From the IMG/VR virus record IMGVR_UViG_3300045988_081755: a stretch of 64,000 nucleotides of DNA; one strand, written 5' to 3'. Below are positions 12,682 through 63,405 of this stretch, piece by piece. Source of the DNA: a virus. The notes under the pieces are model-generated. The model was not told where the DNA came from, did not search any database, and saw nothing but the letters and a program-made list of their open reading frames with translations. The position numbers and the translations under genes are program-made. Positions within the stretch are counted from its first letter, which is position 1. Each line of letters opens with the position of its first letter.

Positions 12682-15600
12682 TTAAGAAATTTTCCAGCTC
12701 GTATTCGTCGTTATCTTGAACGTTTGTGAACCACCCGTTGCGCCATAAGACAGGCTCGTTGGAGTGACTTCAAGATACAGAATCTTCGCTACCAGTGTTC
12801 TCGCACCTGTTACCGTGAACTGATAGGAGAGACTTGTGCTCACCCGTGTGCTGCCCTCGTACCATCCGTCAAACACGTCAGCACTATTGGTCTTGGTACA
12901 TACAACCGTTGCCGAAGCACCATAGTTATAAGACCCACCGCCAGATACTGAACCACGTCCCGCAGCCGAACTGTCAAGACTGACAGATATTGTATAGGAA
13001 CGAGTTGTTCTATTTCCTCGAGCCTCAACCGTAACATTTCCAGTAATAGTTCCTGGAGAATAAGTTACAGAGGTGGACACTCTGGTTGAACCATTGTACC
13101 ATCCGTCGAAGCTATAAGAATATTGAGCAGTAGTTGCCGGAAGCGATGCAGTAGAACCAGCAGCCGTACCACCATAAGAAACCGACTCGCTTGCACGACT
13201 CACAGAGGCAATATACGCATTCTTATTATAGGTGACAGTATAACTTCTCAGGCTTCTCGTTCCCTTCGCAGTGTACGTTGCATTAGCTGTTACACCAGTC
13301 GGAGCATAAGTTGCTGAAGATGTTATCTTAGTCGCTCCGTTATACCAACCATCAACCCCATAGGAGTATTGAGCAGTCGTAGCGGAAACAGTCATCGTTG
13401 AACCAGTAGCGTTGGCTCCGTGAGCAACACGTTCTGAAGTTCTACTCAGACTTGCGACATAATCACCAGCCGAATAAGTTATCGTATAATATTTCTTCGT
13501 GAAGCGAGCATATACGGTCATCGAGGCTGTTACACCTGAAATCGCATACGATGCTGAACTACTCAACAAAGAACCACCTGATGCACCAGCAGAATACCAA
13601 CCATCAAACTGATAACCAGCAGCAGCCGAAGCCGTGACAGTTATACTTCCTCCGTGATTTACACTTCCACCACCTGAAACTGTTCCACCCGTTGTTCCGG
13701 CTGTATAGTTTCCTGTGCCGTCTGTATTACGATAATACGCTGACGGGGAGACTGTATATGAGTTAATGGTCGCTTTCGCTGTAAGAGACAAATTAGACTT
13801 AACAGCCGTCGGAGCATACGTCAATGATGTTGAAACTCTGGTTGCGCCATTGTACCAACCGTCAAATGTATATCCCGCAGTGACTGTGGCTGTACAGCCA
13901 GTCGCATTAGCTCCCCAACTTACAACTTCAGAAGTCTTACTGATTGTGGCGATACCTGTTCCCTTGACATAAGTCACGGTATAAGTGTTCGTCGTATATT
14001 CAGCCGTATAAGTTGCATTCGCTGTAACAGTAATCTCACGAGAAGCAGTTGTTACACCATCAGACCACTTAGAGAATGTCTTTCCTTCTATCGTAGAAGC
14101 TGTCAGAGTAACCTTTGTTCCATAATCATAAGTTCCCCCACCAGAACCATTGTTCACGGTAATTGTGTACTTATTGACTGTGGCTGTTCCTCTGGCTTCG
14201 AAAGTTCTCGCAGCCGTAATGTTCGCAACGCTCAACGCAAGAGCCGTACCAACCTGAGTGCTTCCTTCGTACCATCCCGCAAACGTGTATGTATATTGGG
14301 CAGTATTAGCAGGAAGAGTCGCTGTACAGGTCGCAGTTCCACCGTAATTTACGGATTCACTCGTCTTACTGATAGAAGCGATATTCGCATTCTTTGTATA
14401 AGATACTGTATAGACGTTAATTGTCGCAGACGCTGTCAATGTACAGTTAGACTGAATTGCTGATAGAGTTGCCTTACCAGCTGAAACTGTCAATGTACCT
14501 GTTCCAGAAGTCTTCGTCCAAGTCGGAGTATTGTAACCAGTAGAAGCAACCGCAGTATCTGAAGTCACTGAACCATTATACGCTACTCGCTCAGTCGTCT
14601 TCGTCAGAGCATTTACACCTGTTCCCCTCACATAAGTCACAGTAAACCAATTCTTTTGGAATCGAGCATAAACTGTTACCGCAGCCGTCACACTTGCTAT
14701 CTCATAAGTCGCGGACGTGCTGATTTGTGTACCACCAGCGTCGTACCAACCTTGGAATGTATAACCTGCCTTCGCAGCAGCCGTTAAAGTCGCTTTAGAG
14801 CCATAGTTATATGTTCCCGAGCCTGTTACCGTACCGCCATTCGTTCCGCTCGTAAACGAGCCAGTAGAATCCGTATCACGGTATTGAGCCGTTCCTGTGA
14901 TTGCAAATGTTTTCAACACTCCCTTAGCAGTGAGCGTCATGTTTCCAGTAACGTTGGTTGGTCCATAAGTAAGAGCCGTGCTGACACGAGTATCACCGTT
15001 GTACCATCCATCGAAATTGTAACCTGTCACCAATGCCGCAGTAGAACCCTTCGCATTTGAACCGTGTTCAACTGTTTCACTCGCTGGAGTAACCGAAGCA
15101 ATTCCTGTGCCTTTCGCATACGTGATAACATAGGTATTGATTCCGAACGATGCAGCATAAGTTTCATTTGCCGTAACATTCGTGACGGTCAATTTAGCTG
15201 TCTTGGTTCCATCACTCCATCCACTGAACGTGTATCCTGTCGAAGCGGTTGCAGTTGAAGATGCTTCGCCACCATACTGTACTCGAGCCGATGTCGGCGA
15301 TACTGAACCACCTGTTCCGGCTGTGAATGTTACTGTAAACCATTGACGCTGGAACCGTGCTGTCAAGCTGCGAGCTCCTGTTGCGGTGAATGTATAGGAA
15401 GCGGAATCCGAAACTTTCGAATCGCCCTCATACCACCCAGCGAAACTGTACCCAGTTGCCGGAGTTGCTTTCGCAGTGACTGATGTTCCGTGATTGAAAG
15501 TTCCTCCTCCGGAAACAGTACCACCCGTCGTCCCTGATGTAAAGTCGCCCGATTCAGCCACACGAAATTGAGCAGCCAAATTGATAGCATAGCTCTTAAT

Positions 15601-16566
15601 CGTGAACACCGCTTGAATCGTGCGGTTCTTAGTAATCTCCCATCCAGGATACGGGTTCGTCGTTGATTCAACCCCCTCTTCATCAACCCATTTCGTAAAG
15701 TTGTAACCAGTAGCAGGGGTTGCAGTTGATTTAATGCTCGAACCATAGTCATAAGTTCCTCCTCCGGATACCGTTCCCGCACCTGTCGGGGTAATGGTAA
15801 ACGCAAGAGAATACCTGTTAAGCGTTCGAGAACCAATTGCTGTGAATGTTCTGTTTGCTGTTATATTTGCCACGCTCAATGACAACGACGAAGAAATCTT
15901 CGTGTCGCCCTCATACCATCCTAAGAATGAATATGAGTATTGAGCCGTATTCGCGAGCAGTGTTGCAACCGCAGTTGCGGTATTTCCCCAATTAATCTTC
16001 TCGGAAGTCTTATTAATCGTATTGATATAATCTCCTTTCGAATAGGTAACAGTCCAAGTCGAAGTTGCTTGAGTAACTGTTACCGTCCCAACGACAGAAG
16101 CGATTGAACCCGTAACAGTTATCTTCCCTGTACGTCTTCCAACCGTGTTCTTAGGAATGGGGATTTGGGCACTGAATATAAACTCATCAACGGCTCCTGG
16201 GTCATCAGGAATTGATGTCCCATTCACCGTCAATAAGCCATTCGCAGTATAATTAGCAGGCAAAACAATAGGGATATCATTCCCCGAACCAAGAGCGAAA
16301 GTAATCTTCGGTGAGTTGCTCTTTCCAGAAACAGTTATCGTCGAAGCTCCTTCGCCTACCTCAAATGAAGTCTTGTCCAAAGTAATGTATTCAGCAGTTG
16401 GCTCTTGCTTAACTTGGTAAGATTTTGCCGCTTCAATTCCTTTGACCACAGCCGTAACAACTGTCTGACGTTCAAGACGACCTTTATGTATCGTGCCTGA
16501 ATTGGTCAGAGTAGCGTCACCCTCTCCGGTCATTGGATTAACGGTCAACCAAGAATCTTTCGCCAT
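12682..16566 (-). CDS. giant virion surface repeat protein (Ig/BACON-like ends plus about 14 Listeria-Bacteroides/Flg_new-type repeats)
   Basis: 1294 aa. The signature Y-x-F-x-G-W-Y/W-S-D recurs about 14 times (FLGWYEGDTK, FAGWYEGDSK, FDGWYNGDTR, FSKWSDGVT and so on). The N-terminus is paralogous to 17672..18307 and the C-terminus to 16593..17129. Confidence 0.8.
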   Translation of the reverse strand: MAKDSWLTVNPMTGEGDATLTNSGTIHKGRLERQTVVTAVVKGIEAAKSYQVKQEPTAEYITLDKTSFEVGEGASTITVSGKSNSPKITFALGSGNDIPIVLPANYTANGLLTVNGTSIPDDPGAVDEFIFSAQIPIPKNTVGRRTGKITVTGSIASVVGTVTVTQATSTWTVTYSKGDYINTINKTSEKINWGNTATAVATLLANTAQYSYSFLGWYEGDTKISSSLSLSVANITANRTFTAIGSRTLNRYSLAFTITPTGAGTVSGGGTYDYGSSIKSTATPATGYNFTKWVDEEGVESTTNPYPGWEITKNRTIQAVFTIKSYAINLAAQFRVAESGDFTSGTTGGTVSGGGTFNHGTSVTAKATPATGYSFAGWYEGDSKVSDSASYTFTATGARSLTARFQRQWFTVTFTAGTGGSVSPTSARVQYGGEASSTATASTGYTFSGWSDGTKTAKLTVTNVTANETYAASFGINTYVITYAKGTGIASVTPASETVEHGSNAKGSTAALVTGYNFDGWYNGDTRVSTALTYGPTNVTGNMTLTAKGVLKTFAITGTAQYRDTDSTGSFTSGTNGGTVTGSGTYNYGSKATLTAAAKAGYTFQGWYDAGGTQISTSATYEIASVTAAVTVYARFQKNWFTVTYVRGTGVNALTKTTERVAYNGSVTSDTAVASTGYNTPTWTKTSGTGTLTVSAGKATLSAIQSNCTLTASATINVYTVSYTKNANIASISKTSESVNYGGTATCTATLPANTAQYTYTFAGWYEGSTQVGTALALSVANITAARTFEARGTATVNKYTITVNNGSGGGTYDYGTKVTLTASTIEGKTFSKWSDGVTTASREITVTANATYTAEYTTNTYTVTYVKGTGIATISKTSEVVSWGANATGCTATVTAGYTFDGWYNGATRVSTSLTYAPTAVKSNLSLTAKATINSYTVSPSAYYRNTDGTGNYTAGTTGGTVSGGGSVNHGGSITVTASAAAGYQFDGWYSAGASGGSLLSSSASYAISGVTASMTVYARFTKKYYTITYSAGDYVASLSRTSERVAHGANATGSTMTVSATTAQYSYGVDGWYNGATKITSSATYAPTGVTANATYTAKGTRSLRSYTVTYNKNAYIASVSRASESVSYGGTAAGSTASLPATTAQYSYSFDGWYNGSTRVSTSVTYSPGTITGNVTVEARGNRTTRSYTISVSLDSSAAGRGSVSGGGSYNYGASATVVCTKTNSADVFDGWYEGSTRVSTSLSYQFTVTGARTLVAKILYLEVTPTSLSYGATGGSQTFKITTNTSWKIS

Positions 16567-18307: not shown

Positions 18308-18377
18308 AAATTCACTATTTTAAACGTTAAACAAAATTTTTCTCACCAACAAAGATAGTAATATTAGAGCGAATTCC

Positions 18378-19259
18378 CTACTCAAGCCTCCAAGCGGTCT
18401 TCGCTTCAATATCCTGTTCCCCTTGATTATTCATTTCATCCAGCCACACATATCCCGACTTAAACTGAAACAGTTCGTTCCCTGTCTGAAGAACCCAATC
18501 TGTATTTGAATAGATAGTATTTTCTCCATTATTAGTAAGCTGGTCGAGCCACACATACGGGTGTGAAAATTCAAAATATTTGTCAATAGGAGGTGGATTC
18601 CAACTTGGGTCTGACCCAACAGGTATCGCATCCTCTATCACAAATCTCCTCACAATTTCAGGTCTAACGATTGAAGCATAATCTCCTATGTCCTCAACCT
18701 CTATTGACACGTTCTTTATCAATATCGGTTGCGGAAACAGGCTGTTCTCCGCTATCAATTCATTCGTGCTGAAATCGAAGTACGCAAACTCTTCCTCGAA
18801 CGTATTTCTTGCACCTATCAACAACGCATACAATACCTCACCAATCAAGATTGATTCAAGCATATTGTCACTGAAGCACATCAGGTCAATTCTTGAAAGA
18901 GCTGGCTGTCGGAACCCCTCACGTTCATATTCAGGAACCCCAAAGGTATCAAGCACGGGAGCACCGTACCCACCCAACGGAGCTGGCTTATCGGTTGAAC
19001 GTCCTGGCTCTCTTACAATTATACAAGGCATATGGCTCTTATCCTTAGGATATTCCATCTTCACCTGTATCTTCCGAGGATTAGTATTCTTCCTCAAGAA
19101 AAGTGCCTTCGCCTGTTCGTAGAAGTCAAACTGCCCATCCCGAGTCCCGTAGAACATATGGTATAAGAAAGTCTGGGTCTCCGGCACACTTTCGTAATCA
19201 TACTGAATGTATGCTATCAACCCATCGACTATCTGTTTTATTCTTGCAATTAGTATCAT
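18378..19259 (-). CDS. neck / head-tail joining module protein, function unassigned
   Basis: 293-aa ORF between the capsid and tail blocks, 2-nt gap to its neighbour. Confidence 0.6.
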   Translation of the reverse strand: MILIARIKQIVDGLIAYIQYDYESVPETQTFLYHMFYGTRDGQFDFYEQAKALFLRKNTNPRKIQVKMEYPKDKSHMPCIIVREPGRSTDKPAPLGGYGAPVLDTFGVPEYEREGFRQPALSRIDLMCFSDNMLESILIGEVLYALLIGARNTFEEEFAYFDFSTNELIAENSLFPQPILIKNVSIEVEDIGDYASIVRPEIVRRFVIEDAIPVGSDPSWNPPPIDKYFEFSHPYVWLDQLTNNGENTIYSNTDWVLQTGNELFQFKSGYVWLDEMNNQGEQDIEAKTAWRLE

Positions 19260-19261
19260 CT

Positions 19262-20032
19262 CTATAATTGATTTAAAAATTCATCAATCGCCATGTCAGC
19301 TACCTCAAACACCTGTGCCTCGTCAAGAGCTCTGTCCATGAACTTCCGAGGTTCAAATCCAGGATGAATCCAACTCAACGGGTCACTGTTATTACTGACC
19401 CTGCGGAATGTAAAGTATCCCCCTCGATTCTCTTTGTCCGTAGATGAAACATCAATCCTCACGAGTCCTTGGTATTGGGGTGATTTATGGGTGTACTCTG
19501 GTATTACTCCGTTCGCTGTTCGAATTTCCTTACGACGACCCAATTGAGCGTACTGTGCTGGGAGTTGAGACTTCTTTACAGGCTGCCCACCGTTACTTTT
19601 TGCAATGTCGTATATTTCTTTCGGCAAAGCATTTTGAAAAATTGTGGATTCAGCAACAGCGTCAGGAGTAGCATAACGGAAAGGAATTGTCAAATACCAA
19701 CCCCCACTTAAAGAAGTTTTCTTCTTCGGGGAATTGGCGAATCCTGGTTTCTCGTCGAACGGAGCTTTACCCTCTTCAAGAGCCAAAGCCAAACCATCCT
19801 GTCCAGGCTGTAAACCAAACACAACTTCCGTCGCACTCACTCGGTCGACATACATTGCTTGCTTATACAGTTTTCGAGTTTTCTTCAACTCTTTATTGAC
19901 AAGGTTCTCCCACTTATTTACATACTCCGTCACGACTCGGTTGATAATTTCACCACCGAGTGCCTGAGCTTGGTCGCCTGTCAAAGCAAACTCCGCTACA
20001 ATTTCGCTCAAATCAACGTGTATCGGAATCAT
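19262..20032 (-). CDS. neck / head-tail joining module protein, function unassigned
   Basis: 256-aa ORF, overlaps the upstream gene by 20 nt. Confidence 0.6.
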   Translation of the reverse strand: MIPIHVDLSEIVAEFALTGDQAQALGGEIINRVVTEYVNKWENLVNKELKKTRKLYKQAMYVDRVSATEVVFGLQPGQDGLALALEEGKAPFDEKPGFANSPKKKTSLSGGWYLTIPFRYATPDAVAESTIFQNALPKEIYDIAKSNGGQPVKKSQLPAQYAQLGRRKEIRTANGVIPEYTHKSPQYQGLVRIDVSSTDKENRGGYFTFRRVSNNSDPLSWIHPGFEPRKFMDRALDEAQVFEVADMAIDEFLNQL

Positions 20033-33423: not shown

Positions 33424-34170
33424 ATGAGAAAAGATGTAATACAATGTTCGAAAAGAGTCAGCGAAGATACTCCTGACTACTCATGTTGGCAAATGCGCTG
33501 TCTGTGCTTAGTTGCCGACCAGCTCCAGCCTTTATTAAAGGAAGATATTGATTGGGCAAATACAAAGTTTGAAAACCTCGAAAAGTACGGTATCTTTAAC
33601 GATGACCATGAAGTTGAAATCACGATGAAACTTTCCGACATCGACAAGAACCGAAACGGAATTCGGGTTCTCAATGAGATTAAAAAGATGTTCGATATTC
33701 CCATTACATGGGATTGGATGAAAAACGGTAAAGCCACACGAACTGTCTTTTACTTTATCCATCGAATGGAATGGAATGAAGATAACCTGTTTTCTATTTA
33801 TCTGTCCCATTTCAGCGTTCGATGGATTCTTGAGTTCGGGAAGCGACAGGGGTTCTTATCGTTTGACAAACCGTCAATGATGATGCTCTCTTCTTCCTAC
33901 TCTATGCGCCTCTTTTTGATGTTGAGTCAATGGTACTCTAAGAAAGAGTTTTCTCTCGGTGTAGAGGAACTTGAGAGACGTCTGTGTTGTCCTAAATACA
34001 CCCCCAAAGATTTACGTGTACAGGTGCTTGAACCTATAAGAAGAGAGTTAAATAGCAAGGACTGCCGTCTTTCTTTTGAATATAAGTTCGTGTCAAACGA
34101 CAGAAAGAAAGGAGTTGGTCGAAAACGTTTTGATACTGTGGTGTTCACTATAATTGACAAAGAGAAATAA
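33424..34170 (+). CDS. iteron-type replication initiator, Rep_3-like
   Basis: 248 aa. SSSYSMRLFLMLSQWYSKKEFSLGVEELERRLCCPKYTPKDLRVQVLEPIRRELN matches the conserved second winged-helix region of Rep_3 initiators (S-x-Y-x-x-R-L-Y-E-L-L...V-L-x-P-x-x-x-E-I-N). Iterons lie directly upstream. Confidence 0.75.
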   Translation: MRKDVIQCSKRVSEDTPDYSCWQMRCLCLVADQLQPLLKEDIDWANTKFENLEKYGIFNDDHEVEITMKLSDIDKNRNGIRVLNEIKKMFDIPITWDWMKNGKATRTVFYFIHRMEWNEDNLFSIYLSHFSVRWILEFGKRQGFLSFDKPSMMMLSSSYSMRLFLMLSQWYSKKEFSLGVEELERRLCCPKYTPKDLRVQVLEPIRRELNSKDCRLSFEYKFVSNDRKKGVGRKRFDTVVFTIIDKEK

Positions 34171-34173
34171 TCT

Positions 34174-34713
34174 ATGGGCAAAGAAGATACATTATCGGTT
34201 CTGAATATTCAAGCGGAAAACGACCGTCTGAATAAGCGTATCCTCTTTCTTGAGCGTGAAAATCGTGAACAGAGAAAGGAACTGTCAGACTATGCTCGTA
34301 GGGAAAAGGAACTGTTGGAAGAGATAGACCGTTTGGAAGGAGAGCTCGATGAAATAACATTTGAGAAGCGTCCTAAATACAAGCCGGAAAATCCAGCCGA
34401 AAGTGTTGACGACTTTCTCCTTCCAAAAGTAGATACTGGGACTGGGCTGAACCGAGTGGGCAAGATTGGCTTTGAAGAAGAGTGGGAAGATGTCATGTAT
34501 GCTTATACAGATGAAATCTTCGTTGAGTCAGATAAACCTGACGTCCTCTTCTATCGTGACGATGCTGAGAAATGCTTTATCACCCCCACGGGGAACACTC
34601 GGTTGCCTTTCCCTATTTTGCAAGAAGACCTTGACAGGTACAATATAATAAAAGTTCGACCATTGACTCAAGAGGAAATGGGGGAAGTGTGCAAAGAGTT
34701 CGATTTAACTTAA
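34174..34713 (+). CDS. coiled-coil protein, function unassigned
   Basis: 179 aa, 3 nt after the rep stop. N-terminal heptad-like region. Contains DTGTGLNRVGKIG, which resembles the RVG motif of 32152..32658. Confidence 0.6.
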   Translation: MGKEDTLSVLNIQAENDRLNKRILFLERENREQRKELSDYARREKELLEEIDRLEGELDEITFEKRPKYKPENPAESVDDFLLPKVDTGTGLNRVGKIGFEEEWEDVMYAYTDEIFVESDKPDVLFYRDDAEKCFITPTGNTRLPFPILQEDLDRYNIIKVRPLTQEEMGEVCKEFDLT

Positions 34714-34725
34714 AATTCATTCACA

Positions 34726-34989: not shown

Positions 34990-35294
34990 TGAAGAAACTT
35001 GTATTCCTATTCTTGACGTTGCTGATTGTAGGCTGTGGGACGACTCGAAAGACCGTGTTCTTTGAGCGAGTAACCCCACAGCCTCTTTCGGTGATTGACA
35101 GCCTGAACACCGTTCACGGCTTGAGCGTTCCTACGAATTTAAACTCGTGGGGCAAAACGTACTTCATCGGGAATGATTCCGTGATGACAACTGTTTACGT
35201 CTTGACTGAAAGGAAGAAAGACACTTTATTTATCTTTTCTGTTACTGAAACAGCCGGAAAAGAAAATGTAATCTTTAAATTTAGGAAGGAATGA
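34989..35294 (+). CDS. lipoprotein (possible cognate inhibitor of the downstream peptidase)
   Basis: 101 aa from the internal ATG of track ORF 34689..35294. MKKLVFLFLTLLIVGCGTT is a lipoprotein signal with lipobox. Beta-rich. 4-nt overlap with the peptidase gene. Confidence 0.65.
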   Translation: MKKLVFLFLTLLIVGCGTTRKTVFFERVTPQPLSVIDSLNTVHGLSVPTNLNSWGKTYFIGNDSVMTTVYVLTERKKDTLFIFSVTETAGKENVIFKFRKE

Positions 35295-35872
35295 TTACAA
35301 GAGGACTTGGATTTATTGAAAGTGGCGTCAATCCGAATGACGCCATTTATGCAGCTCCAAAGATTGAACTCCCGAAGAGCTATGAACTGAAAGAGCAACT
35401 CCGTGTCTATGACCAAGGAAACAAAGGAAGCTGCGTTTCCTGTACCGTTGCGGAGATGTTCAACTTCTATTGTAAATCGAAAGGTCGTGAATCGGGCATC
35501 GGTTTCGAATACATTTACGACAACCGTTCTGACAAGACTATTGACGGAATGATGCCTCGTGAGGCTTTCGAAATTCTTAAACGGGAATCTCGTATTGATT
35601 TATTCGCTCGTGTGACGTCTCTTGACGCTCTCAAAAAGAGCGTTCTTGTCAATGGCGCAGCACTTATAGCGATGAATGTATTTTCGTATAATGACGACTT
35701 TTGGGATGGCGATGAATTCATGGGTGGTCATGCTGTGGCTGTCGTTGGTTATGATGAAACAGGCTTAATCATTAAGAACTCCTGGGGTACAGGGTTCGGT
35801 CGTGGTGGCTATGTTACTCTCCCATACGGAAAGTTTAACAAAGTACGAGAAGCCTGGACTCTGCTGGGTTAA
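35291..35872 (+). CDS. papain-like (C1-type) cysteine peptidase, minimal catalytic domain
   Basis: 193 aa. Gln/Cys motif QGNKGSCVSCTVAE, His motif GGHAVAVVGYDE, Asn/Trp motif IIKNSWG. No signal peptide or propeptide. Followed by a terminator hairpin. Confidence 0.8.
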   Translation: MITRGLGFIESGVNPNDAIYAAPKIELPKSYELKEQLRVYDQGNKGSCVSCTVAEMFNFYCKSKGRESGIGFEYIYDNRSDKTIDGMMPREAFEILKRESRIDLFARVTSLDALKKSVLVNGAALIAMNVFSYNDDFWDGDEFMGGHAVAVVGYDETGLIIKNSWGTGFGRGGYVTLPYGKFNKVREAWTLLG

Positions 35873-35893
35873 TCTTTCGTTACTATTTGCGAG

Positions 35894-35926
35894 GAGCACT
35901 TCTTTCAGGAGTGCTCTTTGTTTTTC
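35894..35926 (+). terminator. terminator of the rep-peptidase operon
   Basis: GAGCACT-tctttcagg-AGTGCTC followed by TTTGTTTTTC. Confidence 0.65.
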
Positions 35927-35943
35927 TTCGAAAATCAAGAAGG

Positions 35944-35961
35944 AGTCTCCCTGTCGCAAGC
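35944..35961 (+). repeat. crossover-site copy A (18-nt core AGTCTCCCTGTCGCAAGC)
   Basis: Identical to 37993-38010 and to the reverse complement of 36628-36645 except for one base. Confidence 0.7.
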
Positions 35962-36259
35962 TGGCGTTCCCTACGCAATTTCCGGTACAACTATCAACAT
36001 CACTGGATATGGTTCAGGCAAAGGAACTGTTAGCGTAACAGCTCCAGCAGGGGGTTCTTGGAGTATTGACTTCGCAAGCAATGCTTTCAGCCTTACTGCT
36101 TCGCCATCATCGGGTACTGGTCCGAACAGTTCCGTCACTATCAATGCTATCAATGATTCTGGTCAAACAGGTATTCACAGAATTAATATCTATCTTAAAA
36201 ACGGCTCAACGGTTGTTGATACAGCAACCGTTCAAGTTCGTATAACTTCTCAAGGATGA
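35944..36259 (+). other. silent alternative C-terminal cassette A for gene 36303..37391
   Basis: No ATG; the track ORF starts at a TTG inside the terminator T-run at 35918. Begins with an 18-nt core identical to the crossover site, in the same codon phase (GVSLSQAGV). Ends at the palindromic terminator 36272-36293. Confidence 0.6.
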
Positions 36260-36271
36260 TTATGAAGGAAA

Positions 36272-36293
36272 GGAGCTGGGATATCCCAGCTCC
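36272..36293. terminator. 22-bp perfect palindrome between cassette A and the expressed C-terminus (bidirectional terminator)
   Basis: GGAGCTGGGATATCCCAGCTCC lies between the convergent stops at 36259 and 36303. Confidence 0.6.
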
Positions 36294-36302
36294 CAATTCC
36301 AA

Positions 36303-37391
36303 TTATGGTGTGATAGTTTGGTTTTCAGCTTTAAGAGTGAAAGTTGAAAAGTACCTAGAGTCGAATATATTTTGGCCACCCCGCTGAATGCGTACTGTAA
36401 TAGTGTCACCAGCTTTGGCTTGAACAGTTTCCATCCTGCTTCCTGGTTTACAAACTGTCAATCCGTTTGTATTATTCCACATAATTGAGGCATTTTCATA
36501 CCCAGAACCCATAGAATAATAATCATTTGGACCATACAATGGAATACCCGTTGAATTAAATAGATAAGCGGTTGCTCCTGTATAATTACGGAACTTAATT
36601 GTTAGGGTAAATCGGGAAACGACGGCTGCTTGCAACAGGGAGACTGCTTGGGTCTTACCACTACCAGTCTGCGTATAGGAAACAGAACCGCCTCTCGAAC
36701 CGCTTTGATTGGACGCAGCCGTAATAGATGTTCCATCCGTGTTCTTGCTGAACCCTGTTCCGCTAATCGTAGCCGTCCATGCAACATTTTCCTGGGTCGA
36801 TGTTTCGACTCCGTTTATAACTTTCTTTCGGTAGGAAATTACGGTAACGGATTTCGTTCCACCACCAGCGACGAAACTGAGCGATGTCGGAGTCACGGAG
36901 AAGTAATAGTTCCAAGTTACTACTCCCGCAGCCTGACTCAATGAAATAGAAGCTGTTTTCCCACTTGTCCCCTGTGTATAGGAAACAGAACCGCTTCTCG
37001 AACCGCTTTGATTGGACGCAGCCGTAATAGATGTTCCATCCGTGTTCTTGCTGAACCCTGTTCCGCTAATCGTAGCCGTCCATGCAACATTTTCCTGGGT
37101 CGATGTTTCGACTCCGTTTATAACTTTCTTTCGGTAGGAAATTACGGTAACGGATTTCGTTCCACCACCAGCGACGAAACTGAGCGATGTCGGAGTCACG
37201 GAGAAGTAATAGTTCCAAGTTACTACTCCCGCAGCCTGACTTGCGCCAACAGTACGTGTCATCCCGCCACCAGCGACTGAAAGGCTCGTACTGCGTGTGG
37301 ATTCTGTCTGGTTAGCAGACGCTGCGACAGTCACAGTTGTGCTACCACTTCCTCCGGAGTCCGGAGTTGCTGTAATAAAATCTTTCTTCAT
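36303..37391 (-). CDS. BACON/Ig-like repeat protein with switchable C-terminal domain (expressed locus)
   Basis: 362 aa. N-terminus MKKDFITATPDSGGSGSTTVTV, two near-identical 101-aa repeats, then ...GKTQAVSLLQAAVV followed by a ~105-aa unique C-terminal domain. Promoter TAAATTTG at 37431-37438. Confidence 0.8.
   Translation of the reverse strand: MKKDFITATPDSGGSGSTTVTVAASANQTESTRSTSLSVAGGGMTRTVGASQAAGVVTWNYYFSVTPTSLSFVAGGGTKSVTVISYRKKVINGVETSTQENVAWTATISGTGFSKNTDGTSITAASNQSGSRSGSVSYTQGTSGKTASISLSQAAGVVTWNYYFSVTPTSLSFVAGGGTKSVTVISYRKKVINGVETSTQENVAWTATISGTGFSKNTDGTSITAASNQSGSRGGSVSYTQTGSGKTQAVSLLQAAVVSRFTLTIKFRNYTGATAYLFNSTGIPLYGPNDYYSMGSGYENASIMWNNTNGLTVCKPGSRMETVQAKAGDTITVRIQRGGQNIFDSRYFSTFTLKAENQTITP
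36619..36654 (-). repeat. crossover site inside the expressed gene
   Basis: Minus strand reads GACCCAAGCAGTCTCCCTGTTGCAAGCAGCCGTCGT, which matches 37984-38019 on the plus strand at 34 of 36 positions. Confidence 0.7.
36669..37241 (-). repeat. 303-bp in-frame tandem duplication inside gene 36303..37391
   Basis: 36669-36938 and 36972-37241 are identical except for 2 mismatches (offset 303 nt = 101 aa). The ~33-bp junctions between the copies diverge. Confidence 0.9.
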
Positions 37392-37430
37392 AATTCTTAA
37401 AATTAGTTATAACTAAATGAAATTTCACCG

Positions 37431-37461
37431 CAAATTTAGCGGTTTATATCTCGAAATCAAA
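37431..37461 (-). promoter_or_regulatory. Bacteroides-type promoter of the switch gene
   Basis: TAAATTTG (-7, 37431-37438) and TTTG (-33, 37458-37461) with a 19-nt spacer. Lies inside the invertible segment. Confidence 0.6.
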
Positions 37462-37899
37462 ATCCTTTGTCGTTATCCTACAAAACGAGCCTTCCGGAGA
37501 AAGGCATATCACCTCTGTTTGGTCGTCTAAATACGATACAGATAGGACGGGGAGATAAGTGTATCCATCAATATAGAAAATGCCTGCAGGCTCCCCGTTA
37601 AGACCGTCAAACGTGGGAACCTGTATCCTGGGGGATACGACCTGTTTACCGCCACCGAAAACTCCGAAGTCCCTAACAGTCTGTTTCACCGTGACGAGTA
37701 CCTGTTCAAGCTCGTGAATATACTTGCGTTTCATGTTCAAGTAGGAATTAAGAATCATGCTGACCTCAATCTTCCCTTCAATTCCGTACAGTTTCCTCGT
37801 TTCATTGCGGAGAACCTGAAGTTCTCCTGCGGAGAGTTCTTCAAAATCCTTTTCAAGAATGTCGAGCAACTGTTTGTTTCGCTTTTCTTCTTTCTTCAT
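37444..37899 (-). CDS. hypothetical protein inside the invertible segment
   Basis: 151-aa ORF upstream of the switch gene. No serine or tyrosine recombinase motifs recognisable. Confidence 0.6.
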   Translation of the reverse strand: MKKEEKRNKQLLDILEKDFEELSAGELQVLRNETRKLYGIEGKIEVSMILNSYLNMKRKYIHELEQVLVTVKQTVRDFGVFGGGKQVVSPRIQVPTFDGLNGEPAGIFYIDGYTYLPVLSVSYLDDQTEVICLSPEGSFCRITTKDFDFEI

Positions 37900-37983
37900 G
37901 TCTTCATTCTTTTATATGTAAAACGTTCTTTTTCCGACAATCAATTGATTTTACGCCAGAATCTTCCTTATTCATTTAAAATA

Positions 37984-38019
37984 GAGCCAAGCAGTCTCCC
38001 TGTCGCAAGCAGCCGTCGT
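37984..38019 (+). repeat. crossover-site copy C
   Basis: GAGCCAAGCAGTCTCCCTGTCGCAAGCAGCCGTCGT, an inverted repeat of 36619-36654. Sequence on both sides is unrelated. Confidence 0.7.
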
Positions 38020-38380
38020 AATAACCTATAAATATAGAATTGCACCTGAATTGATTACAGTTTCTAATTCGCAACATGGTTCTGTGACGAAAACTGTTCT
38101 GATGTATAAAGAGCGTTATGTGAATGGGGTTAAAGATGGTGAAGAGCAAATTGAATACTCTTTACTTGACCAAAATGGAAGTTATTCCCCTGTTCCTTCT
38201 ACCACATACACAAATGTTTGGGGAGGAACTTGGACAATTGAAAAGACAGGGAATTCTTTAAGGGTAACGACAATTTCAGGAGGAAGCAATTCTTCTGGTG
38301 GAATCACTGGTGTGAAATTAATGCCTGGAACCAGTTATGCTGGGACAATAAATACCGATTTAAATTTGGGTCGTCCATAA
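37985..38380 (+). other. silent alternative C-terminal cassette C for gene 36303..37391
   Basis: The frame is open from the TAG at 37982-37984. There is no ATG (track start is the TTG at 38051). Begins SQAVSLSQAAVV, encoded by a 36-nt inverted copy of 36619-36654. Followed by hairpin 38393-38417. Confidence 0.6.
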
Positions 38381-38392
38381 TTTCAAATAAAA

Positions 38393-38417
38393 AGAGCGGA
38401 GTTTTCGGCTCCGCTCT
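38393..38417. terminator. hairpin between cassette C and gene 38468..38743
   Basis: AGAGCGGAG-ttttcgg-CTCCGCTCT. There is a T-run on the minus-strand side (TTTTATTT). Confidence 0.55.
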
Positions 38418-38467
38418 TCCCTGTCGTCAAACAATAAATCAAAATATGAAAACACAACAAAGAGAAT

Positions 38468-38743
38468 TCATTTTCCTCTGATGATAGTAGTATAACGGTC
38501 ATAGATGGCATCCCAGTTCTTTTCGACAAGTTTGCATTTCTGTGTGAAAGACTTATCGTTGAAAGTGTTGATGTTTTGAAAGACTCCGGCTTTCAGTTCC
38601 GGATGCCACATCTTTAGAAAGATACCCTGTTCACTGATGAAGCCTATTTCCTCACCCTTGTAAACTAACTGTGCATATTCTGACGTGGGCATTCCGGCTC
38701 CACCCTTTACCGTTACTCGATTTATTTCAATAGGTGCTATCAT
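38468..38743 (-). CDS. hypothetical protein
   Basis: 91-aa ORF. Its ATG overlaps an upstream stop as ATGA. Confidence 0.6.
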   Translation of the reverse strand: MIAPIEINRVTVKGGAGMPTSEYAQLVYKGEEIGFISEQGIFLKMWHPELKAGVFQNINTFNDKSFTQKCKLVEKNWDAIYDRYTTIIRGK

Positions 38744-39438: not shown

Positions 39439-39460
39439 AAATCTTTGAGAGGATTGATTT

Positions 39461-40128
39461 TTATGTGAAATCGAACTCGGCTACACAAACATATTCTCCC
39501 TGATACTGAGGGTCTCCAAGATATAATCGAATGTACTGAAGAGCGTGTGAAGCGGGAGTGAATTGCTTTCCGGCAGACATTCTAAAATAATGTGCAGTAA
39601 AGCCAGGAATTCCAGGGTTCTCGGGGTCACTTTGAACTTTGTCATAATATGACTTGGTTCCAGCTCCAGGAATATCTTTATACAAAGTTTCCATGTAAAC
39701 GCCATTATTAAATGGCTCCTCCCATATATTTTCGATACTGTCTGAAAGCAATAACGCTCCTCTTGTTACCCAATAAGTATCGGACATTTCAGACACGGAA
39801 GGAATCTGTGCATTCATTTTAACTGAAAGATATGAAACTTCTCTTTCGTAACCATTGTCGTTTATTTCTGACTTTACAGAAAAACCCGTTGCGTTGAACG
39901 AAAAAGTAACATTTCCATTCCATTTATCAGCAATTGAAGTTAAACCCACAACGGGCATGAGCGGAATTCCGTTTTGGTCAACGGTTACAAGGCGAGATAC
40001 CCCCCCCAGCGGAGAAGTTCAAAGTTGTGGAGCGAGCAGAAAAGGTTGGATTTGGGTCAGCAGATACGCTTACTTGAGCCGTACCCCCCCCCCGAATCGG
40101 GAGTGATTGTAAGAAAATCTTTTTTCAT
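39461..40128 (-). CDS. BACON-like paralog interrupted by two poly-G tracts (phase-variable candidate, out of frame as assembled)
   Basis: The ATG at 40128 gives MKKDFLTITPDSGGG, then a stop. With G9 instead of G10 the frame reads GTAQVSVSADPNPTFSARSTTLNFSAGGG. With G7 instead of G8 at the second tract it joins track ORF 39461..39958. Confidence 0.6.
40010..40017 (-). repeat. poly-G tract (G8 on coding strand), second tract of gene 39461..40128
   Basis: Run of 8 C on the plus strand. In-frame lengths would be 7 or 10. Confidence 0.95.
40084..40093 (-). repeat. poly-G tract (G10 on coding strand), codons 12-15 of gene 39461..40128
   Basis: Run of 10 C on the plus strand. In-frame lengths would be 9, 6 or 12. 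Confidence 0.95.
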
Positions 40129-57517: not shown

Positions 57518-57853
57518 CTATCGAGGCGACTGTCTCTTCCTCTGTATCACATCACACTCCTCTCGCAATTCCTTCAACGTTCTTGAATTGTGCTTGAGCG
57601 TATCATTAATCACACCAGCCACCTCATACTGTTCATTCCTGACAGCCTCATGATAAGCCGTCTCGAGCATCTTGAGATACATACTGACAGTCACGATTTC
57701 CGTCTCCAACATCTTCAAGTATAATATCTCATGATTGTTGAACACGTAATTGAACCGCTTGCTCAACAACGTATATCCCCACACCGACAGCACAATAACA
57801 GCCATCAGCAGTATGAATAATATGATAAGCAACTTAATCATAATACCATCCAA
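57518..57853 (-). CDS. membrane-anchored protein
   Basis: 111 aa, N-terminal TM IKLLIILFILLMAVIVLSVWGYTLL. Confidence 0.6.
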   Translation of the reverse strand: MDGIMIKLLIILFILLMAVIVLSVWGYTLLSKRFNYVFNNHEILYLKMLETEIVTVSMYLKMLETAYHEAVRNEQYEVAGVINDTLKHNSRTLKELREECDVIQRKRQSPR

Positions 57854-58374
57854 TCCTTTGCGAACATATCATTCCAGTCCGGCACGTAGTTCGTAGCCAC
57901 TGAACTGCTGGGGAACTGTTTAATCACAAGACACTGGTTGCGATAGTGAATGTCCTTGTCGGCTGTCTTACCTATCAACTCCTTGGCTGAATCAGGTAGG
58001 GACTGCATCTTAGGAACTATCTCAGCACTGATATCGCTGTCGATTTGCTTCACCACAAACTTATCCCCAATCCAACTTTCTCTTCTGATACATTTACCAG
58101 CCTCAAGAGCCTGTAATGCTTCCCCGAATGACAGGTTCTGATACGGGTGTTTATAAGCAGCGATGTCGTCATTGGTTATTCCTAACAGGCTCATTCTTGC
58201 CCTCAGGTTCTGACGATAATCATCCATCGCATTCATCTGACCATACATCAGGGGTTTCTGCTCAGAAGGGATTTCATTGAATTTAGGATTTTTGAGGATG
58301 AACTCATCCAACTTGTTTGTTCTCTCGTCGAGCTCTACATACTCGGCAATCATTCTTTCTTTAAATGCTTCCAT
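57838..58374 (-). CDS. fusion of an N4 gp49/Sf6 gp66-like domain and a DUF2829 (Tad2-like) domain
   Basis: 178 aa. N-terminal ERMIAEYVELDERTNKLDEFILKNPKFNEIPSEQKPLMYGQMNAMDDYRQNLRARM. C-terminal SFGEALQALEAGKCIRRESW...YVPDWNDMFAKDWMVL matches the DUF2829 hallmark (F-G-x-A-L-x-A-L-K-x-G-x-x-x-x-R-x-x-W ... D-W). Confidence 0.6.
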   Translation of the reverse strand: MEAFKERMIAEYVELDERTNKLDEFILKNPKFNEIPSEQKPLMYGQMNAMDDYRQNLRARMSLLGITNDDIAAYKHPYQNLSFGEALQALEAGKCIRRESWIGDKFVVKQIDSDISAEIVPKMQSLPDSAKELIGKTADKDIHYRNQCLVIKQFPSSSVATNYVPDWNDMFAKDWMVL

Positions 58375-60307: not shown

Positions 60308-60919
60308 TTAATGTTTCTCAATATCCTCGTACGCACGCAAGGCAACCAGCTCAATTAAATCCTTTTTTGCCTTGTGCATAGCGTTCTTGACCTGCTGTAC
60401 GGTGAAGTCCAGCTCATCGGCTATTTCTTCGTAGGAGAAGTCATCAAAGAACTTCATCTGTAACACCCGTCGTGATACTTCAGGCATTTCATTCATGACT
60501 GTCCTAACGAATTCCAAACGCTGTTTGAACGACATTGCTTCTTCCGGTGTACGGCTGTCATCTATTACTTGTAACGTAGGTCGTTCATCCTCGGTATCGT
60601 CGAACCCTTCATCGATGCTAACGATGTTCACTCTGTTACGCTTACGACAGTAATCTATCGCACAGTTCCTTCCGATACGTACTAACCAAGCACTCAGTTG
60701 ATAGTCCGGCTGGAAGTTCTTTAACCGCTGAAAAGCCTTTTCAAAGGTTTCCATTACGATGTCGGCTGTAAGGTCGCTATCGTTTACGATATCAGATATC
60801 TGAATAGTCAAGATAATTCTGTATTTCTTGAAGATTGCTGAATAGGCTTCCTGGTCGCCACATAAGGCTCTTTGAACCAAAAAGAAGTCCTTCTCTTTTG
60901 ATGATAATTTAGGTCTCAT
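60308..60919 (-). CDS. sigma-70 family (ECF-like) RNA polymerase sigma factor
   Basis: 203 aa. Region 2-like YSAIFKKYRIILTIQ...ADIVMETFEKAFQRLKNFQPDYQLSAWLVRIGRNCAIDYCRKR and region 4 HTH-like RVLQMKFFDDFSYEEIADELDFTVQQVKNAMHKAKKDL. Confidence 0.85.
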   Translation of the reverse strand: MRPKLSSKEKDFFLVQRALCGDQEAYSAIFKKYRIILTIQISDIVNDSDLTADIVMETFEKAFQRLKNFQPDYQLSAWLVRIGRNCAIDYCRKRNRVNIVSIDEGFDDTEDERPTLQVIDDSRTPEEAMSFKQRLEFVRTVMNEMPEVSRRVLQMKFFDDFSYEEIADELDFTVQQVKNAMHKAKKDLIELVALRAYEDIEKH

Positions 60920-62919: not shown

Positions 62920-63405
62920 ATGATTAAGACTGGTTTAACCGCAGAAGAGCTCGAACGTAGTGCTCTCTTGCTTAATGGTTTGCTTGCCGACCACTTCACG
63001 CTGTTGCTGAAGACATGGCAGTTTCACTGGAACGTCGTAGGAGACTCATTTGGTTCCTATCACGAAGGGATGCTGAAACTTTATGAAGCCGAAATTGAAC
63101 GTGTTGATGATGTTGCTGAACGTATCCGTGCGCTCGGAAAACGTCCGTTGGGTTCTATGGAAGCTATGTTACAGAACAACCACATTCAGGAGTTTAAGAT
63201 GGATGAAAGAGTTCCTCAGGCAATTGATATGTGGAAAATCATTCGTGACGACTGGGATAGGATGATACGTTCAATTCGTGACATTCACAAACAAATCCCT
63301 CAGAACGACCTCGCCACTCTGAACTTCCTTGAGGACATGATTGAAAGCATGGAAAAGGAAGCGTGGATGAATCGTTCCTACAATGTTACTCCCGAGGGAG
63401 AGTAA
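62920..63405 (+). CDS. dps: Dps-family (DNA protection during starvation / ferritin-like) protein
   Basis: 161 aa. LNGLLADHFTLLLKTWQFHWNVVGDSFGSYHEGMLKLYEAEIERVDDVAERIRALGKRP follows the Dps consensus, including the ferroxidase His/Asp/Glu positions. Lone plus-strand gene, with hairpin terminator 63426-63448. Confidence 0.9.
   Translation: MIKTGLTAEELERSALLLNGLLADHFTLLLKTWQFHWNVVGDSFGSYHEGMLKLYEAEIERVDDVAERIRALGKRPLGSMEAMLQNNHIQEFKMDERVPQAIDMWKIIRDDWDRMIRSIRDIHKQIPQNDLATLNFLEDMIESMEKEAWMNRSYNVTPEGE

Follow-up and report, generated by a model that had tools for sequence, protein, structure and literature searches.

A candidate shufflon-like inversion switch at short coding repeats in an adhesin-like BACON/Ig gene of a common gut phage

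The window analysed here is a stretch of 64,000 nucleotides (nt) from the virus record IMGVR_UViG_3300045988_081755. Between positions 35,944 and 38,380 it carries a gene for an adhesin-like protein with BACON and immunoglobulin (Ig)-like domains, in which the C-terminal domain follows a short repeat, termed S1, that also opens two silent cassettes nearby. In related phages, isomers of this locus exist, and they differ exactly at the repeats in near-identical genomes (99-99.9% identity). We judge the chances to be even or slightly better that the locus is a shufflon-like multi-inversion switch driven by homologous recombination at short coding repeats. In such a switch, the mobile module would comprise the promoter, a gene for a protein of 151 amino acids (aa) and the constant 5' part of the adhesin-like gene, and it would end in a repeat within the codons for the last Ig β-strand (VSLSQA). 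Silent, start-less C-terminal cassettes would each begin with an S1 repeat in the opposite orientation, and recombination between inverted copies would flip the intervening segment, fusing the constant part in frame to another cassette. The present state of the window would express a domain referred to as B; inversion of 36655-37983 would yield the constant part plus cassette C, and inversion of 35962-36618 the constant part plus cassette A. The exchange would be carried out by the phage's own RecA, SbcCD, RuvC-like resolvase and ligase on repeats with 19-37 bp of identity, without a dedicated invertase.

S1 repeats, cassettes and signals in the window

The 18-nt core of S1, AGTCTCCCTGTYGCAAGC, has exactly three exact copies in the 64 kb, at 35944(+), 36628(-) and 37993(+), where chance expectation is 0 and 100 shuffles of the window gave 0 matches. 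A repeat search of the window delimited the surrounding similarity. The arms 36619-36655 and 37983-38019 form an inverted repeat of 37 nt with 95% complementarity, in line with the 36-nt inverted repeat that the initial annotation, made from the letters alone, had described between sites B and C. A further inverted repeat of 28 nt (86%) links 35940-35967 to 36622-36649, and 35940-35967 is in addition a direct repeat of 37989-38016 (89%). For site A, the 18-nt core initially placed at 35944-35961 stands, but its extent has to be revised, as similarity runs over 28 nt instead of 18. The three sites share one codon phase and the peptide (A/G)VSL(S/L)QA(A/G)V, which is the final β-strand of the Ig/BACON-like domain; the codons listed below bear out what had been claimed on this point. 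The same peptide motif, here as SISLSQAAGV, closes the first Ig-like repeat of the same gene and is written TCT ATT TCA TTG AGT CAG GCT GCG GGA GTA, i.e. in other codons than S1, as had also been stated. The elements of the locus are as follows.

35940..35967, plus strand: site A, S1 core repeat with its core at 35944-35961; codons GGA GTC TCC CTG TCG CAA GCT GGC GTT CCC (GVSLSQAGVP)
36619..36655, minus strand: site B, S1 core repeat inside the expressed gene, core at 36628; codons GCA GTC TCC CTG TTG CAA GCA GCC GTC GTT (AVSLLQAAVV)
37983..38019, plus strand: site C, S1 core repeat with its core at 37993-38010; codons GCA GTC TCC CTG TCG CAA GCA GCC GTC GTA (AVSLSQAAVV)
36303-37391, minus strand: expressed adhesin-like gene, 362 aa, with weak BACON matches and two 101-aa tandem repeats
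36656..37391, minus strand: constant 5' part of the adhesin-like gene, an N-terminal segment and two 101-aa Ig-like repeats
36303..36618, minus strand: expressed C-terminal domain B, 106 aa, β-sandwich
35942..36259, plus strand: silent cassette A, a BACON_2-like Ig domain (PF19190, E=1.5e-5) with no ATG and no promoter
37991..38380, plus strand: silent cassette C, a 121-aa domain downstream of the junction
37444..37899, minus strand: 151-aa gene within the B-C invertible segment, moving together with the constant part
37431..37438, minus strand: Bacteroidota-type -7 promoter box TAAATTTG, 40 nt 5' of the ATG at 37391
35889..35921, plus strand: terminator-like hairpin, 3' of the papain-like peptidase gene and 5' of site A
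about 36273..36294, no strand: 22-bp perfect palindrome GGAGCTGGGATATCCCAGCTCC at the point where cassettes A and B converge
38394..38418, no strand: hairpin 3' of cassette C, common to a convergent 91-aa gene (38468-38743, minus strand)

Through their shared core and single codon phase, the S1 copies join the expressed gene 36303-37391(-) to two cassettes that possess neither a promoter nor a start. Cassette A sits in an open reading frame (ORF), 35918-36259, that begins at TTG and has no ATG, and the frame of cassette C, also free of ATG, opens at 37985, immediately 3' of a TAG at 37982-37984. A scan of ORFs and motifs found no TAnnTTTG sequence upstream of cassette A or C on the plus strand, consistent with the initial annotation on both counts; the box at 37431-37438(-) is the only one in the locus. 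The hairpins that had been proposed to end each cassette were likewise recovered, at about 36273-36294 for the 22-bp palindrome and at 38394-38418. The palindrome GGAGCTGGGATATCCCAGCTCC is likely a bidirectional terminator, and the hairpin at 35889-35921 insulates cassette A against read-through.

The constant part opens with an N-terminal segment of 55 aa that has a weak BACON match and is predicted to be disordered. The Ig-like repeat behind it is present as a 303-nt tandem duplication (36652-36938 and 36955-37241, 97% identical), and its copy number varies between otherwise identical strains, with one copy in L160 and P0002 and two in the window and L159 (L and P numbers denote related loci or contigs and their proteins). 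The 109-kb scaffold L158 has a 100-N gap at this position, which identifies the tandem repeat as a trouble spot for assembly.

Rearranged isomers in related phages

Features were mapped in 26 related loci and 76 metagenome stretches; a blastn search with 33.5-41 kb of the window against the GenBank phage collection gave no match. The usual layout in relatives starts at the peptidase flank with S1(+), a cassette pair and S1(-), continues with a module made up of a silent 'D' cassette, the 151-aa gene and the constant part, and ends with S1(+), a cassette pair or a single C cassette, S1(-) and the flank with the 91-aa gene. Most relatives have this larger version with four core sites and at least six cassettes per locus. 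The fourth core site belongs to the flank with the hairpin that follows cassette C, and the peptidase-side flank is one of four 'left arms' joined to a core site. The window form is limited to three sites and three cassettes; it lacks both the D cassette and inverted copies of S2, a second repeat described below. Hence, of the three-cassette switch proposed initially, the switch logic is upheld by the relatives, but the three-cassette layout is not the general form and represents a reduced version of a larger system.

Homologues of the 362-aa protein are mostly 260 aa long and consist of the constant N-terminus, one Ig repeat, the junction motif and one C-terminal domain. Among full-length homologues, the constant N-terminus is 94-100% identical over 55 aa, and its fusion partners are A-, B-, C-, D-, E-, F- and G-type domains; overall, the C-terminal domains comprise at least 14 types that are unrelated or distantly related (clustering gave 14 groups). 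Both rearrangement products predicted from the window occur in this set. Fusions of the constant part to a C-type domain are present in P0117, P0109, P0111, P0074, P0019 and P0110, with 70-88% identity to cassette C of the window, and the A-type fusion is represented by one protein, P0101 (72% identity). In L016, L017 and L018, the 150-aa gene and the constant part are flipped between the same flanking genes and read into cassette C, and the sequence left of site C is now attached to the other site, which matches the predicted B-C inversion.

In the comparison of orientations that had been suggested as a check, the module occurs in both orientations between identical flanks. The A/B cassette pair can lie on either side of the module and point either way. 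There are four kinds of left arm and at least eight cassettes; the arms are seen attached to every kind of cassette, and the join always lies within the core; L016 and L037 have reciprocal junctions. Contigs from different samples form many pairs that are 99.0-99.8% identical over 3-6.6 kb and set apart solely by inversions that end in the repeats and involve an 808-nt cassette pair, the module of ~1650 nt or an inner segment of 933 nt (for example L024/L180, L180/L204, L180/L224 and L016/L037). When contigs were grouped by modules at least 99.5% identical, no fewer than five different cassettes were fused to the constant part within a single cluster of 17. The silent cassettes are intact ORFs, and identical types occur silent in some loci and expressed in others. 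Some loci have additionally lost sequence. L018 and L026 have deletions at non-repeat positions, and L022 is without the upstream cassettes. The breakpoints that distinguish L024 from L026 lie outside the repeats and were not counted as programmed; they proved to reflect a deletion of ~1 kb that joins the D and E cassettes, which is decay. A 2.4-kb ENA contig, L019, opens with an S1 site followed by its own reverse complement (L019:28-81), and this hairpin-like chimera most probably arose from misassembly at an invertible repeat.

The second repeat class, S2, is a 34-nt sequence, TAAACGGAGTCGAAACATCRACCCAGGAAAATGT, that forms an inverted pair 898 nt apart in nearly all relatives, one copy lying in the coding sequence of the Ig repeat and the other in a partial silent copy. 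Recombination at S2 flips the 151-aa gene together with the 5' part of the adhesin gene, i.e. the promoter-proximal module, and the product has the adhesin 5' part fused to an alternative 3' half of the repeat and the D domain. In L025 and L024, the 933-nt inner segment is 100% identical and lies in opposite orientations. S1 and S2 have unrelated sequences, and both bound recent inversions. In the window, S2 is restricted to the tandem repeats:

36784..36818 and 37087-37121, minus strand: direct copies of S2, TAAACGGAGTCGAAACATCRACCCAGGAAAATGT, in the tandem repeats only

Contig ends provide hints of heterogeneity within samples. For metagenome contigs covered over their full length, 15 of 80 ends fall within 42 nt of an S1 or S2 copy, a density about 10-fold that at 100-500 nt. 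Assembly ERZ837910 contains two contigs, covered 581x and 542x, whose ends share exactly 55 nt at an S1 site and its arm. This overlap probably equals the k-mer size of the assembler; as the genome has no repeat as long as 55 nt, the assembly graph must branch at that S1 site. Judged from contig sequences, the breaks hint at coexisting isomers within a sample, with a mixture of strains as the alternative. Contigs of ~930 nt from Logan that end at S2 were not counted here. Logan contigs are built at k=31, and a 34-nt repeat breaks such assemblies anyway.

Recombination at the repeats and its catalyst

The consensus of S1 from 59 distinct contexts is essentially invariant at positions -3, -2 and +1 to +15, and positions +16 to +23 travel with the cassette. 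It is asymmetric and has no dyad symmetry (the best centre pairs 7 of 13 positions). The sites are unlike hix, gix or sfx, as stated initially. Identity between partner sites spans 16-37 nt for S1 and 34 nt for S2. Within genomes, the repeats are homogenised. In 62 of 71 contigs, all S1 sites carry one and the same base at position -1 (C in 42, G in 20), and L024 has G throughout and L026 C throughout, though the two are ~99% identical over aligned segments. The two long arms have matching bases at position -7 in 37 of 41 contigs, and S2 pairs share lineage-specific substitutions. The exceptions to S1 homogenisation are mostly outer arms, where flanking homology is shortest. Homogenisation of the left arm is expected from heteroduplex formation and gene conversion; it is not expected from a fixed crossover point.

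Precomputed Pfam matches were combined with further Pfam and PHROG scans, and together they spanned the window as well as the ~45 kb of a 109,370-nt relative that lie beyond it. They revealed no serine, tyrosine or DEDD recombinase anywhere in these ~109 kb, so that the absence of a recombinase first noted for the 64 kb holds, and the search for an invertase elsewhere in the genome, which had been recommended, found none either. PF00239, PF07508, PF00589-type domains and the PHROG integration/excision category had no match in the ~109 kb save one weak hit (E=0.004) to a coiled-coil protein of 179 aa; its assignment as an integrase was judged spurious. The 151-aa gene was considered as an invertase and rejected: its model, with a predicted local distance difference test score (pLDDT) of 88, consists of three helices and SH3/Tudor-like barrels, which is not a recombinase fold, and comparison of this model with the PDB gave no significant match. 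The gene is also present in distant relatives without cassettes or repeats (L243, L244, L242), where the locus comprises the peptidase, the 151-aa gene and a 155-aa BACON protein on one strand and a few nt apart. It follows that the switch arose recently, as an elaboration within a shallow clade. As it is wholly absent from the relatives whose 151-aa proteins are 48-66% identical, these offer no divergent test of core conservation. A nearby ORF of 442 aa, acidic and without a recognisable motif, was likewise discarded as a recombinase, having no similarity in Pfam, PHROG or the PDB. The 21-nt pattern of the S1 site had 0 matches in 185,579 species-representative genomes, known RNA families such as guide or bridge RNAs gave nothing above noise around the locus, and no reverse-transcriptase domain appeared in any of the Pfam results.

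Among the gene products of the phage are RecA, SbcC, an SbcD-like phosphoesterase, a RuvC-like Holliday-junction resolvase and an NAD-dependent ligase, as well as UvrD and SNF2. Homology-driven inversion is favoured by the combination of two repeat classes unrelated to each other, a complete set of phage recombination genes and the lack of an invertase, and the catalyst is most likely this homologous-recombination machinery of the phage.

Several observations weigh against recombination by homology, or against ongoing switching altogether. Core positions 1-15 are essentially invariant including synonymous positions, which would also fit a specific recognition protein; some recombining pairs share just 16-19 nt of identity, which is short for RecA-type exchange; and many phage ORFans without annotation leave room for a new recombinase family. 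The short partner identity and the invariant synonymous core make a host or novel site-specific enzyme a serious rival, although we consider it clearly the less probable one. In that case, a host (Bacteroidales) invertase or a novel phage ORFan would act on the asymmetric S1 site of ~19-27 bp, and S2 would call for a second activity or for homologous recombination. Such an enzyme would account for a 15-nt core that is invariant in all lineages, third codon positions included, beside 45 nt of constant arm that are up to ~19% divergent, for recombinants that are precise and reciprocal, and for exchange between sites with only 16-19 nt in common; shufflon sfx sites are asymmetric as well, and the phage has unannotated proteins in number. 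The invariance of the core is, however, weak evidence because the clade has little depth and runs of 13-14 nt are invariant in S2 as well. Moreover, no serine, tyrosine or DEDD domain is found in ~109 kb, the sole gene within the invertible module lacks a recombinase fold and persists in cassette-less relatives, the 21-nt site is missing from the species-representative genomes, an unrelated repeat likewise bounds recent inversions, and left-arm positions -7 and -1 are homogenised within genomes, unlike what a fixed crossover point would leave.

Further points against the switch concern the window strain itself. All five of its assemblies (L158-L161, L163) have one arrangement, the same as the window, and differ only in having one or two Ig-repeat copies; L158 and L160 are 99.8-100% identical to the window. 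(L162 has a module that is 98.8% identical, but other cassettes.) Core position 12 of site B (window 36634) is T, C being present in every other copy examined, so that the peptide reads VSLLQAA instead of VSLSQAA. Switching in this strain may hence be rare, slow or locked. In addition, the evidence for isomers comes from assemblies of different samples, which limits what may be claimed about switching within a clonal population. A reading without any ongoing switch could build on this: the repeats would be linkers at domain boundaries, the inversions rare events or products of recombination during co-infection, and the window cassettes relics. The single arrangement across five independent assemblies, the unique core mutation in site B and the decayed or deleted versions L018, L026 and L022 all suit this reading, and contig breaks could stem from strain mixtures. 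We nonetheless regard it as improbable, given silent cassettes that are intact ORFs of types both silent and expressed, the many pairs at least 99% identical that differ solely by repeat-ended inversions, at least five fused cassettes in one cluster of near-identical modules, an equal-coverage break exactly at a site in one sample, and homogenisation of the repeats within genomes. Least credible, to the point of being nearly negligible, is that the plus-strand cassettes are separately translated small genes that share only a common protein motif. Both cassettes are open over more than 100 codons with TTG candidates, and cassette A matches a Pfam domain; yet both lack an ATG and a TAnnTTTG promoter, a terminator precedes cassette A, the same peptide motif is written in other codons elsewhere in the gene, and the same cassettes are fused to the constant part in relatives. 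We see roughly an even chance that the locus is a programmed, invertase-less switch in the style of antigenic variation, acting on an adhesin that binds mucus, epithelium or the host. Signals of 19-37 bp in two unrelated classes, held identical through gene conversion, would then allow the phage's RecA/RuvC to flip nested segments and so draw on at least six silent C-terminal domains.

The product, the phage and known systems

The model of protein P0001 has a disordered N-terminus of 53 aa, a confident Ig-like domain and a confident C-terminal β-sandwich. Its matches in the PDB are tandem-Ig bacterial adhesins (LigA, SraP, InvE) and the Ig and CBM20 domains of CGTases. The adhesin-like product is a putative virion protein. 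Displayed on another phage, BACON/Ig proteins from this group mediate attachment to epithelium and mucus, and small C-terminal changes in them alter binding (PMC13370021). Phage group and protein type in that study, BACON/Ig adhesins of Flandersviridae-like gut myoviruses, appear the same as here, but unlike at the window locus, inversions or cassettes are nowhere mentioned (PMC13370021).

The phage is myovirus-like, ~105-110 kb in size and very common in the human gut, and encodes Baseplate_J, portal, an intein-bearing terminase, DnaE, DnaB, GroEL and RNR. Its gene set is close to that described for Gratiaviridae/Flandersviridae by Benler et al. (PMC8008677), and it appears to be a gut myovirus of this kind. 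No integrase or other recognisable lysogeny gene was found in it. Just upstream of the switch, a Rep3-type initiator with WH1/WH2 domains (33424-34170, plus strand) and the papain-like C1 peptidase (35291-35872, plus strand) form a plus-strand island between minus-strand modules. The whole locus is bracketed by a 27-nt inverted repeat (85%; 34696-34722 / 39452-39478, 4.7 kb apart), which exists because two convergent genes (179 aa and 165 aa) share the C-terminal peptide ...C.xEFD(L/F)T. A similar ending (...DFDFEI) is found in the 151-aa protein, and these common C-termini may be an interaction motif. Elsewhere, the window encodes an HU/IHF-like DNA-binding protein (PF00216; about 47.7-48.0 kb, minus strand), a sigma-70-family factor (60308-60919, minus strand) and a ferritin/Dps-like protein (62920-63405, plus strand) whose identical sequence occurs in 1,526 blocks of the collection. 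A 178-aa protein (57838-58374, minus strand) has a homologue in related loci that matches Sequestin (PF21825) and Tad2-like (PF11195) domains, which suggests an anti-defence sponge of the anti-Thoeris type. The large terminase with its Hint/intein domain is located past the left end of the window (L010:18076-20175), and homing-endonuclease genes (NUMOD3, GIY-YIG) are scattered in the genome, their presence varying between strains. Also outside the window, 5-hydroxymethyldeoxyuridine (5-hmdU) DNA kinase domains, a thymidylate-synthase-like enzyme and a dUTPase (L059:16597-18358, 18373-19479 and 15310-15759) suggest phage DNA with hypermodified thymidine.

The logic resembles that of the Mu G, P1 C and p15B Min systems with their serine invertases Gin, Cin and Min. 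These are likewise phage-borne, invert coding sequence and combine a constant N-terminus with alternative C-terminal cassettes, and p15B Min even has several sites and nested segments, as does the window system. This likeness, drawn in the initial annotation, is borne out by the cassette swap onto a constant N-terminus in relatives. In contrast, the three known systems possess an invertase gene and dyad-symmetric sites of 26 bp (two imperfect inverted half-sites of 12 bp), neither of which is found here; in the window, moreover, the promoter and constant part themselves lie on the invertible module, the target is a BACON/Ig adhesin-like protein instead of a classical fibre, and the phage has no recognisable lysogeny gene. 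Serine-invertase systems also use a Fis-dependent recombinational enhancer; of related proteins, the phage encodes the HU-like one (PF00216). With the R64/IncI shufflon (Rci, sfx), the locus shares short asymmetric repeats that recur in either orientation and divide the sequence into cassette segments. Many isomers exist, in the phage among genomes at least 99% identical from different samples, the N-terminus is constant and the C-terminus variable, and assemblies are interrupted at the locus. An rci-like gene is absent here, a second, unrelated repeat class takes part as well, and the S1 sequence is presumably unrelated to sfx.

As to mechanism, the sap locus of Campylobacter fetus may be the closest analogue, with far shorter homology in the phage. 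It has a single promoter on an invertible segment between oppositely oriented cassettes, nested inversions and no dedicated invertase. The nested inversions are recA-dependent according to what Dworkin and Blaser are said to have found in 1997, and the sap homologues reportedly share ~600 bp of 5' homology. Where sap depends on general recombination functions, the window phage carries its own RecA, SbcCD and RuvC-like genes, and the concerted evolution of its repeats would fit RecA dependence. It differs in having 19-37 bp of identity at a domain junction instead of hundreds of bp, and in residing in a phage genome. Gene-altering inversions and intragenic invertons of Bacteroidales (PMC9881135, PMC10028968) occur in the same host phylum and recode C-termini through intragenic inverted repeats, but they are chromosomal and come with Tsr or Mpi-type recombinases (PMC9881135), none of which is present in the window phage. 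A diversity-generating retroelement would require a reverse transcriptase and a template/variable repeat pair; no reverse-transcriptase domain was found here, and the variation proceeds by exchange of whole cassettes, not by adenine mutagenesis. No description of this switch system was found in the searchable literature.

Phages of this group rank among the most widespread in the human gut, and similarly high gut prevalence has been reported (PMC13370021). If the switch is real, one phage genotype could present several binding specificities, which would bear on host range, mucosal retention and strain tracking in viromes; it would also account for the assembly breaks seen at the locus in these genomes. 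A hidden recombinase, the alternative catalyst, would be of interest too; an ORFan that catalyses the exchange would represent a new recombinase family on asymmetric sites. If exchange instead proceeds by homology, the locus would be an inversion switch of a phage without an invertase and a tractable case of homology-guided programmed rearrangement.

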